Position numbers and translations under genes: made by a program. 64,000 nucleotides of DNA from Escherichia coli (lineage in GTDB: Bacteria; Pseudomonadota; Gammaproteobacteria; Enterobacterales; Enterobacteriaceae). Positions 13,110-56,629 of this stretch are shown here, piece by piece (positions within the stretch are counted from its first letter, which is position 1; the number at the start of each line of letters is the position of its first letter). The notes under the pieces were generated by a model, which searched no databases, was not told the DNA's origin, and saw only the letters and a list, made by a program, of their open reading frames with translations. The stretch is taken from NCBI RefSeq assembly GCF_003334315.1, contig NZ_QOWR01000010.1, one strand, 5' to 3'.

Positions 13110-14000
13110 ATGAGCCAGTCAGAGTTTGATTCAGCGCTTCCGAACGGTATAGGGTTAGCGCCTTACCTGCGAATGAAGCAGGAAGGAATGACAGAAAATG
13201 AAAGCCGCATCGTGGAGTGGTTACTCAAACCCGGTAACCTGAGTTGTGCACCCGCAATTAAAGATGTCGCAGAAGCTCTGGCGGTATCTGAAGCGATGAT
13301 AGTTAAGGTATCAAAGCTGCTGGGGTTTAGCGGCTTTCGTAACTTACGCAGTGCGCTGGAAGATTATTTTTCTCAGTCAGAACAGGTATTGCCTTCCGAG
13401 TTGGCTTTTGATGAAGCGCCGCAGGATGTGGTGAATAAGGTATTTAACATCACTTTACGCACCATTATGGAAGGTCAATCGATCGTCAACGTTGATGAGA
13501 TCCACCGTGCCGCCCGCTTTTTCTATCAGGCCAGACAGCGGGATTTGTACGGTGCCGGAGGATCAAATGCTATCTGTGCTGATATACAGCACAAGTTCTT
13601 GCGTATTGGCGTACGCTGTCAGGCCTATCCGGACGCTCACATCATGATGATGTCCGCTTCGTTGTTACAGGAAGGAGATGTTGTGCTGGTAGTGACCCAT
13701 TCCGGGCGAACCAGTGATGTAAAAGCGGCCGTAGAACTGGCAAAAAAGAACGGGGCAAAGATTATTTGTATAACCCATAGCTACCATTCACCAATAGCGA
13801 AACTGGCCGATTATATTATTTGCTCACCAGCCCCGGAAACGCCGTTATTAGGTCGTAATGCCTCGGCAAGAATATTACAACTAACTTTGCTGGACGCTTT
13901 TTTTGTCTCTGTCGCCCAGCTCAACATTGAACAAGCTAATATTAATATGCAAAAAACCGGCGCAATTGTTGATTTCTTCTCACCAGGCGCGCTGAAATAA
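13110..14000 (+). CDS. rpiR: RpiR-family regulator (HTH plus SIS domain) of rpiB and the als operon
   Basis: Start at the ATG giving MSQSEFDSALPNGIGLAPYLR... (296 aa). The ORF track opens at 13077. Confidence 0.85.
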   Translation: MSQSEFDSALPNGIGLAPYLRMKQEGMTENESRIVEWLLKPGNLSCAPAIKDVAEALAVSEAMIVKVSKLLGFSGFRNLRSALEDYFSQSEQVLPSELAFDEAPQDVVNKVFNITLRTIMEGQSIVNVDEIHRAARFFYQARQRDLYGAGGSNAICADIQHKFLRIGVRCQAYPDAHIMMMSASLLQEGDVVLVVTHSGRTSDVKAAVELAKKNGAKIICITHSYHSPIAKLADYIICSPAPETPLLGRNASARILQLTLLDAFFVSVAQLNIEQANINMQKTGAIVDFFSPGALK

Positions 14001-50722: not shown

Positions 50723-51004
50723 ATGGCTACCCTCACCACTGGCGTGGTTCTTCTTCGCTGGCAACTTCTTAGTGCCGTAATGATGTTTCTGGCCAGCACA
50801 CTCAACATCCGTTTTCGTCGGTCTGATTATGTCGGGCTTGCGGTGATCAGCAGCGGTCTGGGCGTTGTTTCCGCCTGTTGGTTCGCAATGGGGTTGCTTG
50901 GCATCACAATGGCGGACATCACCGCTATCTGGCATAACATCGAGTCGGTGATGATAGAAGAGATGAATCAGACACCGCCACAATGGCCAATGATTTTGAC
51001 CTGA
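50723..51004 (+). CDS. yjcB: Small inner membrane protein (93 aa) of unknown function
   Basis: ATG at 50723 (MATLTTGVVLLRWQLLSAVMMFLASTLN...) with two hydrophobic helices. The ORF-track 5' extension from 50624 is unlikely. Confidence 0.7.
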   Translation: MATLTTGVVLLRWQLLSAVMMFLASTLNIRFRRSDYVGLAVISSGLGVVSACWFAMGLLGITMADITAIWHNIESVMIEEMNQTPPQWPMILT

Positions 51005-51010
51005 TACGTA

Positions 51011-51040
51011 GAAGCCTCCATAACGGAGGCTTCTTTTTTA
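51011..51040 (+). terminator. Rho-independent terminator after yjcB
   Basis: gaagcctccataacggaggcttc hairpin followed by ttttttat. Confidence 0.8.
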
Positions 51041-51102
51041 TGGCTGGCAGATGCTTTAATCATCCACCTTAAAACAATATAACCTATTGTTTTAATGACA
51101 AA

Positions 51103-51639
51103 TCAGAACGGAATGTCATCATCAAAGTCCATCGGCGGCTCGTTAGACGGCGCTGCCGGAGCGGACTGCTGCGGGCGAGACTGCGCGCCGCCGCTGAACT
51201 GATTGCCACCCTGCGGCTGCTGAGGCTGACCCCAACCGCCCTGCGGCTGACCACCACCGATATTGCCACCTGCCGGAGCGCCACCACCCTGACGACCACC
51301 CAGCATCTGCATGGTGCCGCCAACGTTCACCACGACTTCTGTGGTGTAGCGATCCTGACCGGATTGATCGGTCCATTTACGGGTACGCAGCTGACCTTCG
51401 ATATAAACCTGAGAACCTTTACGCAGATATTCGCTCGCCACTTCTGCCAGTTTGCCGAACAGCACAACGCGGTGCCATTCAGTCTGTTCTTTCATCTCGC
51501 CGGTCGCTTTATCACGCCAGGATTCGGAAGTAGCCAGCGTAATGTTGGCAACTGCGCCACCATTTGGCATGTAGCGTACTTCCGGGTCCTGACCCAGATT
51601 ACCAACGAGAATAACCTTGTTTACGCCTCTGCTGGCCAT
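51103..51639 (-). CDS. ssb: Single-stranded DNA-binding protein
   Basis: Start at [44 protein letters not shown] (178 aa). Gly/Gln-rich tail ending DFDDDIPF. Confidence 0.97.
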
Positions 51640-51789
51640 GTTCGTGTCTCCTGAAAAAAATCGTTCTGAATAAGTGTAAACGCGCGATTGTACCATTACC
51701 AATAGCGCTTTTACTATGTTGTGACCTCGGTTCCGGGAAACAAACCTGGCCAGACATTGTTACACAACACTCCGGGTAATGCATTCCAA

Positions 51790-51809
51790 TACTGTATATT
51801 CATTCAGGT
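51790..51809. promoter_or_regulatory. LexA box (SOS operator) in the divergent ssb-uvrA region
   Basis: taCTGTatattcattCAGgt matches CTGT-N8-ACAG-type SOS boxes. Located between the divergent ssb and uvrA genes. Confidence 0.85.
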
Positions 51810-51892
51810 CAATTTGTGTCATAATTAACCGTTTGTGATCGCCGGTAGCACCATGCCACCGGGCAAAAAAGCGTTTAATCCGGGAAAGGTGA

Positions 51893-54715
51893 ATGGATAA
51901 GATCGAAGTTCGGGGCGCCCGCACCCATAATCTCAAAAACATCAACCTCGTTATCCCCCGCGACAAGCTCATTGTCGTGACCGGGCTTTCGGGTTCTGGC
52001 AAATCCTCGCTCGCTTTCGACACCTTATATGCCGAAGGGCAGCGCCGTTACGTTGAATCCCTTTCCGCCTACGCGCGGCAGTTTCTGTCACTGATGGAAA
52101 AGCCGGACGTCGATCATATTGAGGGGCTTTCTCCTGCCATCTCAATTGAGCAGAAATCGACGTCTCATAACCCGCGTTCTACGGTGGGGACAATCACCGA
52201 AATCCACGACTATTTGCGTTTGTTATTCGCCCGCGTTGGCGAGCCGCGCTGTCCGGACCACGACGTCCCGCTGGCGGCGCAAACCGTCAGCCAGATGGTG
52301 GATAACGTGCTGTCGCAGCCGGAAGGCAAGCGTCTGATGCTACTCGCGCCAATCATTAAAGAGCGCAAAGGCGAACACACCAAAACGCTGGAGAACCTGG
52401 CAAGCCAGGGCTACATCCGTGCTCGTATTGATGGCGAAGTCTGCGATCTTTCCGATCCGCCAAAACTGGAACTGCAAAAGAAACATACCATTGAAGTGGT
52501 GGTTGATCGCTTCAAGGTGCGTGACGATCTTACCCAACGTCTTGCCGAGTCATTTGAAACCGCGCTGGAGCTTTCCGGTGGTACCGCGGTAGTGGCGGAT
52601 ATGGACGACCCGAAAGCGGAAGAGCTGCTGTTCTCCGCCAACTTCGCCTGCCCAATTTGCGGCTACAGTATGCGTGAGCTGGAGCCGCGACTGTTTTCGT
52701 TTAACAACCCGGCGGGGGCCTGCCCGACCTGCGACGGCCTTGGCGTACAGCAATATTTCGATCCTGATCGAGTGATCCAGAATCCGGAACTGTCGCTGGC
52801 TGGTGGTGCGATCCGTGGCTGGGATCGCCGCAACTTCTATTATTTCCAGATGCTGAAATCGCTGGCAGATCACTATAAGTTCGACGTCGAAGCGCCGTGG
52901 GGCAGCCTGAGCGCGAACGTGCATAAAGTGGTGTTGTACGGTTCTGGCAAAGAAAACATTGAATTCAAATACATGAACGATCGTGGCGATACCTCCATTC
53001 GTCGTCATCCGTTCGAAGGCGTACTGCATAATATGGAGCGCCGCTATAAAGAGACGGAATCCAGCGCGGTACGCGAAGAATTAGCCAAGTTTATCAGTAA
53101 TCGTCCGTGCGCCAGCTGCGAAGGGACGCGTCTGCGTCGGGAAGCGCGCCACGTGTATGTCGAGAATACGCCGCTGCCTGCTATCTCCGACATGAGCATT
53201 GGTCATGCGATGGAATTCTTCAACAATCTCAAACTCGCAGGTCAGCGGGCGAAGATTGCAGAAAAAATCCTTAAAGAGATCGGCGATCGTCTGAAATTCC
53301 TCGTTAACGTCGGCCTGAATTACCTGACGCTTTCCCGCTCGGCAGAAACGCTTTCTGGCGGTGAAGCACAGCGTATCCGTCTGGCGAGCCAGATTGGTGC
53401 GGGCCTGGTTGGCGTTATGTACGTGCTGGACGAGCCGTCTATCGGCCTGCACCAGCGTGATAACGAGCGCCTGTTGGGTACGCTTATCCATCTGCGCGAT
53501 CTCGGTAATACCGTGATTGTGGTGGAGCACGACGAAGACGCAATTCGCGCCGCTGACCATGTGATCGACATTGGCCCGGGCGCAGGTGTTCACGGCGGTG
53601 AAGTGGTCGCAGAAGGTCCGCTGGAAGCGATTATGGCGGTGCCGGAGTCGTTGACCGGGCAGTACATGAGCGGCAAACGCAAGATTGAAGTGCCGAAGAA
53701 ACGCGTTCCGGCGAATCCGGAAAAAGTGCTGAAGCTGACAGGCGCACGCGGCAACAACCTGAAGGACGTGACGCTGACGCTGCCGGTGGGTCTGTTTACC
53801 TGCATCACCGGGGTTTCAGGTTCCGGTAAATCGACGCTGATTAACGACACACTGTTCCCGATTGCCCAACGCCAGTTGAATGGGGCGACCATCGCCGAAC
53901 CAGCACCGTATCGCGATATTCAGGGGCTGGAGCATTTCGATAAAGTGATCGATATCGACCAAAGCCCAATTGGTCGTACTCCACGTTCTAACCCGGCGAC
54001 CTATACCGGCGTGTTTACGCCTGTGCGCGAACTGTTTGCGGGCGTACCGGAATCCCGTGCGCGCGGCTATACGCCGGGACGTTTCAGCTTTAACGTTCGT
54101 GGCGGACGCTGCGAGGCCTGTCAGGGCGATGGCGTGATCAAAGTGGAGATGCACTTCCTGCCGGATATCTACGTGCCGTGCGACCAGTGCAAAGGTAAAC
54201 GCTATAACCGTGAAACGCTGGAGATTAAGTACAAAGGCAAAACCATCCACGAAGTGCTGGATATGACCATCGAAGAGGCGCGTGAGTTCTTTGATGCCGT
54301 ACCTGCACTGGCGCGTAAGCTGCAAACGTTGATGGACGTTGGCCTGACGTACATTCGCCTGGGGCAGTCCGCAACCACCCTTTCTGGTGGTGAAGCCCAG
54401 CGCGTGAAGCTGGCGCGTGAGCTGTCAAAACGCGGCACCGGGCAGACACTGTATATTCTCGACGAGCCGACCACCGGTTTGCACTTCGCCGATATTCAGC
54501 AACTGCTCGACGTGCTGCATAAACTGCGCGATCAGGGCAATACCATTGTGGTAATTGAGCACAATCTCGACGTGATTAAAACCGCTGACTGGATTGTCGA
54601 CCTGGGACCGGAAGGCGGCAGTGGCGGCGGCGAGATCCTCGTCTCCGGTACGCCAGAAACCGTCGCGGAGTGCGAAGCTTCGCATACGGCGCGCTTCCTC
54701 AAGCCGATGCTGTAA
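51893..54715 (+). CDS. uvrA: Excinuclease ABC subunit A
   Basis: 940 aa with two ABC ATPase modules ([18 protein letters not shown]) and zinc-finger Cys motifs. Confidence 0.97.

Positions 54716-55636: not shown

Positions 55637-56629
<993 letters not shown>

Follow-up and report, generated by a model that had tools for sequence, protein, structure and literature searches.

The LexA operator between the divergent ssb and uvrA genes of Escherichia coli: sequence, promoter context and conservation

In Escherichia coli, the genes for ssb and uvrA are transcribed away from each other, out of one short intergenic gap. This raises the question of whether a single LexA operator can serve two promoters that face in opposite directions and, if so, how evenly. 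Descriptions of the site date back to the early 1980s, and no compilation of the E. coli SOS regulon omits it; binding of LexA to the uvrA site is said to have been reported by Sancar et al. in 1982. The locus was analysed here in a stretch of 64,000 nucleotides of E. coli DNA (contig NZ_QOWR01000010.1 of assembly GCF_003334315.1), hereafter called the window. An earlier note on this DNA had claimed that one strong SOS box lies between the two genes, where it would govern uvrA and possibly one of the ssb promoters. Our analysis indicates that 51790-51809 is very probably the one LexA operator in the control region shared by the divergent ssb and uvrA genes, occluding the uvrA promoter and the distal ssb promoter until DNA damage occurs. 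The box is real, conserved and ordinary, and it is already known. It has little weight as a discovery and serves as a positive control, in which a reader without tools placed a real operator base-exact and interpreted it correctly.

The operator TACTGTATATTCATTCAGGT stands exactly at 51790-51809, coordinates that were read from the sequence. According to the ORF list and the sequence, it belongs to a gap of 253 bp (51640-51892) bounded by ssb on the minus strand (51103-51639, 178 aa, ATG at the complement of 51637-51639) and by uvrA on the plus strand (51893-54715, 940 aa, ATG at 51893); this is exactly the interval between divergent genes in which the box had been placed. Ribosome-binding sites are found upstream of both starts, AGGAGA at the complement of 51647-51652 (minus strand) for ssb and GGGAAAGG at 51882-51889 (plus strand) for uvrA. 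A longer, TTG-initiated ssb frame with its start at 51702 appears in the ORF list and was discarded as an artefact. The box is separated from the uvrA ATG by 83 bp and from the ssb ATG by 150 bp, its far edge being 170 nt from the latter, as described for the K-12 box (PMC9505508). The gap is base-for-base identical to that of MG1655, where it lies between uvrA (b4058) and ssb (b4059). Thus, with the same 20-mer, a heterology index (HI) of about 7 and the identical 253-bp gap, the site is the uvrA/ssb SOS box of E. coli K-12 and shows no difference from it; for that box, PMC9505508 cites Brandsma et al. (1983, 1985), Lewis et al. (1994) and Fernandez de Henestrosa et al. (2000).

The surroundings agree with this identification. 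The window is E. coli chromosome (qorA-dnaB...uvrA-ssb...soxSR...acs-nrf...fdhF...als-phn), reversed relative to MG1655, and a 1.5-kb query around the box finds a match in every one of the 5,426 complete E. coli genomes; the genes annotated under the matches are uvrA, ssb1 and yjcB. The gap itself is found in 5,426 of 5,426 genomes, at an identity of at least 99% in 5,281 records. In its most divergent E. coli copy (91.7%), the substitutions are clustered in 51713-51780 and both the box and the downstream TGTGTCATAAT are unchanged.

In order to score the site, a Berg-von Hippel heterology matrix was derived from 30 LexA boxes of E. coli that figure in standard compilations, the tested site being excluded. 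Nine training boxes were checked (lexA 1 and 2, recA, sulA, umuDC, uvrB and recN 1 to 3), and all nine were found exact upstream of their genes in MG1655. With this 30-site matrix, the ssb-uvrA box has an HI of 7.65 as written and of 6.37 on the other strand (mean 7.0); the published values are 6.98 (PMC9505508) and, by the Courcelle matrix, 6.2 (PMC11228462). A poor score in such a matrix had been named beforehand as the outcome that would speak against the site, and an HI of about 7 lies well inside the range of experimentally proven LexA sites (below about 13-15). The box is an exact CTG-N10-CAG and a 20-bp imperfect palindrome (consensus TACTGTATATATATACAGTA). Its left half, TACTGTATAT, matches the consensus perfectly, and the heterology is wholly contained in the degenerate right half. 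There, the costliest departure from the consensus is the T at box position 15 (51804), which accounts for 3.66 HI units and occurs in none of the 30 other E. coli LexA sites of the matrix. The adjective "strong" in the earlier note was therefore overstated, given that all the heterology is gathered in one half and that the box has been termed "quite heterologous", with a lower LexA affinity (PMC9505508). Its HI is mid-table, 20 of the 30 training sites having a better (lower) value, and its affinity is intermediate because one half is perfect and the other imperfect.

Is such a score expected by chance in 64 kb? Among the 20-mers of the window, on both strands, the ssb-uvrA box has the best HI and the runner-up stands at 10.81. 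When the window was shuffled 300 times with dinucleotides preserved, the best HI averaged 11.7; a value of 6.37 was never reached, and 7.65 was reached by three shuffles. An HI of 10.8 or better arises in 69 of the 300 shuffled windows, and every other candidate of the window has an HI of at least 10.8. Within the gap, the next LexA-like candidate has an HI of 16.8, so that the box is single there, as had been claimed. The loose pattern CTGT-N9-CAG is found nine times in the window versus 5.4 expected, and is therefore uninformative alone; the ssb-uvrA box is the only exact match to it near any promoter in the window. Three further candidates were rejected as LexA sites. One of them, TGCTGTATATCAGCACAGAT at 13572-13591, is a palindromic CTGT-N8-ACAG inside the alsR coding sequence (HI 11.5/13.5); this match is probably due to chance, in view of the frequency with which shuffled windows yield a site at 10.8 or better. 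Another, at 28912-28931, directly follows the fdhF stop codon and is devoid of CTG. The last, TATTGTTTTTCACGACAGTA at 38043-38062, is a weak LexA-like 20-mer between acs and nrfA (HI 12.6/14.9); it falls in the nrfA promoter region, some 44 bp before the start of nrfA.

A built-in consensus scan of 51500-52000 for promoters and terminators returned nothing, and promoters were assigned by combining a permissive sigma-70 score with conservation. On the uvrA side, an extended -10 element, TGtCATAAT, is located at 51817-51825 (plus strand). It is 93-97% conserved, its TG and the A, T, A, T of its hexamer being invariant, and the stretch 51815-51825 as a whole is 93% conserved across the aligned enterobacterial sequences. 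Only 7 bp separate the end of the box from the invariant TG. The corresponding -35 may be TATTCA (51797-51802, plus strand), at a spacing of 17 bp, or alternatively TTCATT (51799-51804, plus strand); both candidates lie within the LexA box. From this arrangement we infer a uvrA transcription start at about 51831-51833, which would put the box at roughly -42 to -23. The box overlaps the uvrA promoter at its candidate -35 and spacer, and an overlap with the uvrA -35 is also described in the literature, together with a direct repression of uvrA from one LexA box common to ssb and uvrA (PMC9505508). The claim that the box governs uvrA can thus be retained.

On the minus strand, the best candidate for a distal ssb promoter pairs a -35 TTGACC (51807-51812) with a -10 TGGAAT (51783-51788). 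It has a score of 7.7 and an 18-bp spacer, the -35 being moderately conserved (0.58), and the entire LexA box sits in the spacer between its two putative hexamers, which are only about 60% conserved. Another possible distal promoter, ATGACA (complement of 51817-51822)-18-TATACA (complement of 51793-51798), scored below TTGACC-18-TGGAAT and was set aside; its apparent conservation is confounded with that of the uvrA -10 and of the LexA box. Closer to ssb, an extended -10, TGgTACAAT (51687-51695, minus strand), has a conserved TG and a conserved TACAAT (0.81-0.86), and the base between them varies. A second proximal candidate, TTGGTA-18-TACACT (51673-51702, minus strand), obtains the top sigma-70 score of that strand. 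Both proximal candidates are more than 95 bp away from the LexA box. Three ssb promoters have been described, of which LexA represses only the most distal one, the two others being LexA-independent (PMC9505508). The predicted layout, with the box over the uvrA -35 and three promoters for ssb, matches the published one, and the earlier suggestion that the box possibly governs one of the ssb promoters fits the location of the box in the spacer of the best distal candidate.

Conservation beyond E. coli was assessed in species-representative genomes, in which uvrA was located through a degenerate pattern covering its first 17 codons, an anchor that is independent of the LexA box; 120 loci were returned. 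The box is present in 45 of the 45 Enterobacterales-type loci having at least 100 bp of upstream sequence, a set that also includes Tolumonas (Aeromonadales) and one mis-binned contig. In these loci, the usual distance between the box and the uvrA ATG is 80-90 bp, and ssb is divergent in 41 cases. In an alignment of 40 distinct enterobacterial sequences, the box is 90% identical to that of the window, as compared to only 38% for the adjacent 51700-51780. Conservation at the orthologous position in relatives therefore exceeds the neutral expectation (0.90 versus 0.38 in the flanking spacer). The CTG, the CAG and the central T-A-T of the box are invariant in the 40 sequences, and the T at 51804 is retained in 35 of them. 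As a side observation, the 2.9-kb contig of locus L031 (JAATFR010000166.1) is labelled as a Hyphomicrobiales MAG but probably belongs to the Enterobacterales and was mis-binned: it carries the enterobacterial box, and across uvrA its identity to Acerihabitans arboris is 87%.

Other Gammaproteobacteria present a different picture. Fourteen loci have divergent ssb and uvrA genes and a gap in which no LexA-like site was found (best HI 12.4 or higher, in most cases above 18). They belong to Amphritea, Nitrincola and Marinobacterium (Oceanospirillales-type), to Succinivibrionaceae and to some MAGs, and their gaps span 142-256 bp (L003, L015, L021, L036, L059, L060, L080, L121, L068, L093 and others). 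The divergent order is kept there without a LexA site, which implies that it is of greater age or wider distribution than the shared operator. In Vibrio, all eight loci (L012, L013, L023, L030, L085, L098, L099 and L117) have a box of a different type, TACTGTTTTTTTATCCAGTA, with an HI of 3.8-6.2 and at a distance of 63-68 bp from the uvrA ATG; ssb was not found within 1.5 kb of uvrA at any of them. This Vibrio box has a better HI than the uvrA box of E. coli and is closer in likeness to the E. coli uvrB box. Taken together, the box-less divergent loci and the distinct Vibrio box argue that LexA control of uvrA is lineage-specific rather than a by-product of gene order. A box that is universal in Enterobacterales and absent from other Gammaproteobacteria with the same divergent order is the small comparative addition made here.

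On sequence grounds, the testable traits of a gammaproteobacterial LexA operator, namely the palindrome, the HI, the promoter overlap and the orthologous conservation, are all present at 51790-51809. The following mechanism can be proposed. In undamaged cells, a LexA dimer bound at 51790-51809 would cover the -35 and the spacer of uvrA; the same dimer would cover the spacer of the distal ssb promoter, placed back to back with that of uvrA, and RNA polymerase would be excluded from both. Upon DNA damage, RecA filaments would trigger the self-cleavage of LexA, the operator would be emptied and the uvrA and distal ssb promoters would fire. An intermediate affinity for LexA would allow an appreciable basal expression of uvrA and thus only a modest, about 4-fold, induction. 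In a published RNA-seq study, uvrA is induced 3.9-fold by AZT and depends 4.4-fold on a cleavable LexA (PMC11228462). The two proximal ssb promoters, being out of the reach of LexA, would buffer ssb, so that its total output would change little. This model joins what was observed here (the sequence and score of the box, the fact that it is unique and conserved, and the overlap with the uvrA promoter of conserved -10) to two elements taken from the literature, namely that expression depends on lexA and that ssb has three promoters; LexA binding at the uvrA/ssb box rests on literature cited in PMC9505508. We infer steric occlusion as the mode of repression, as we do the exact -35 hexamers and the transcription starts.

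How much of this holds for ssb is disputed. It has to be considered that the box may in practice be the operator of uvrA only, the effect on ssb being physiologically negligible and the shared position a consequence of the short divergent gap. In the RNA-seq study that gave the uvrA values, ssb is induced 1.5-fold by AZT with a lexA dependence of 1.0-fold (PMC11228462), and several older radioimmunoassay and microarray studies, as reported in PMC9505508, saw no induction of ssb. In Salmonella, lexA(Ind-) has no effect on ssb ON cells in the absence of damage (PMC8072944). The better conservation of the proximal extended -10 (0.81-0.86) as compared to the distal hexamers (about 0.6) points in the same direction. 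However, RT-qPCR and digital PCR revealed that UV and gamma irradiation induce ssb in dependence on LexA, and ssb is overexpressed in a constitutive-SOS mutant; during unstressed growth, the wild type and lexA3 did not differ (PMC9505508). In Salmonella treated with nalidixic acid, ssb is up 9.6-fold (PMC8072944). Moreover, a good -35, TTGACC, faces ssb with the LexA box in its spacer. We therefore regard a role confined to uvrA, the main alternative, as rather unlikely, it being understood that such a role and the shared operator are not mutually exclusive. With an operator serving both genes, the weakness of ssb induction, and the dispute about it, are explained by the two proximal promoters that escape LexA.

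It could also be argued that the match to the LexA consensus is fortuitous, or that the box is conserved merely as promoter sequence (-35 and spacer) and not through LexA. Overlap with promoter elements of two genes would by itself impose some conservation. Nevertheless, the score of the box is attained by just zero to three of the 300 shuffles of 64 kb, and what is invariant in the box, the triplets CTG and CAG contacted by LexA and the centre, corresponds to no sigma-70 hexamer. In addition, Vibrio has a LexA box of unrelated sequence at a similar distance from uvrA, and LexA-dependent expression has been published (PMC9505508; PMC11228462). Such an explanation is extremely improbable, and a genuine LexA operator at 51790-51809 remains the reading that we retain.

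What is mildly new is that the right half-site, although imperfect, is itself conserved (its T at position 15 persists in 35 of 40 sequences), which hints at selection for an intermediate affinity or for dual promoter use. We tentatively suggest, as a possibility that is somewhat short of even, that the degenerate right half, T51804 in particular, is held by selection rather than drift and thereby fixes the intermediate affinity for LexA. If so, the bases of the right half would double as the uvrA -35 and as the spacer of two back-to-back promoters, and the fixed intermediate affinity would set an early, shallow induction of excision repair.

The site may be compared with other SOS promoters. 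Like the single-operator promoters of recA, sulA and uvrB, it has a CTG-N10-CAG palindrome overlapping sigma-70 elements, and it resembles them in the proposed repression by occlusion, relieved via RecA-stimulated cleavage of LexA. It differs from them in serving two divergent genes with one consensus half and one degenerate half; further, its target ssb, unlike recA, sulA and uvrB, has additional LexA-independent promoters. In Salmonella enterica, the box at the orthologous position has an HI of 6.99, lies 80 bp away from the uvrA ATG and is likewise shared by ssb and uvrA (PMC8072944). The difference, besides the species, is the stronger induction reported there, uvrA being up 11-fold with nalidixic acid, next to the value for ssb given above (PMC8072944).

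Some minor features of the window can be added. No RNA family was found in the gap by an Rfam scan of 50900-52300. In the stretch from yjcB to the 3' end of ssb (50950-51088), both strands give sub-threshold Rfam matches, to Phe_leader (27.7 bits for a gathering score of 55) and to asX2, which most likely reflect a bidirectional terminator hairpin and not a true member of an RNA family. The closest strain at ssb-uvrA is 300709 (locus L123), with 100% identity over 1.5 kb. Along the window, identity to this strain is uneven (98.2% over 249-28956 and 99.0-99.6% elsewhere), and the relatedness is therefore mosaic; strain 300709 also has an IS150 insertion in aphA (near 56250 of the window) that is absent from the window. 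Finally, a 113-bp unit is repeated in tandem between gltP and yjcO (29668-29930; 2.3 copies, 94% matches). The unit holds REP-like palindromes, GCCTGATAAGACGCG...CGCATCAGGC, and the array is therefore probably a BIME/REP cluster.
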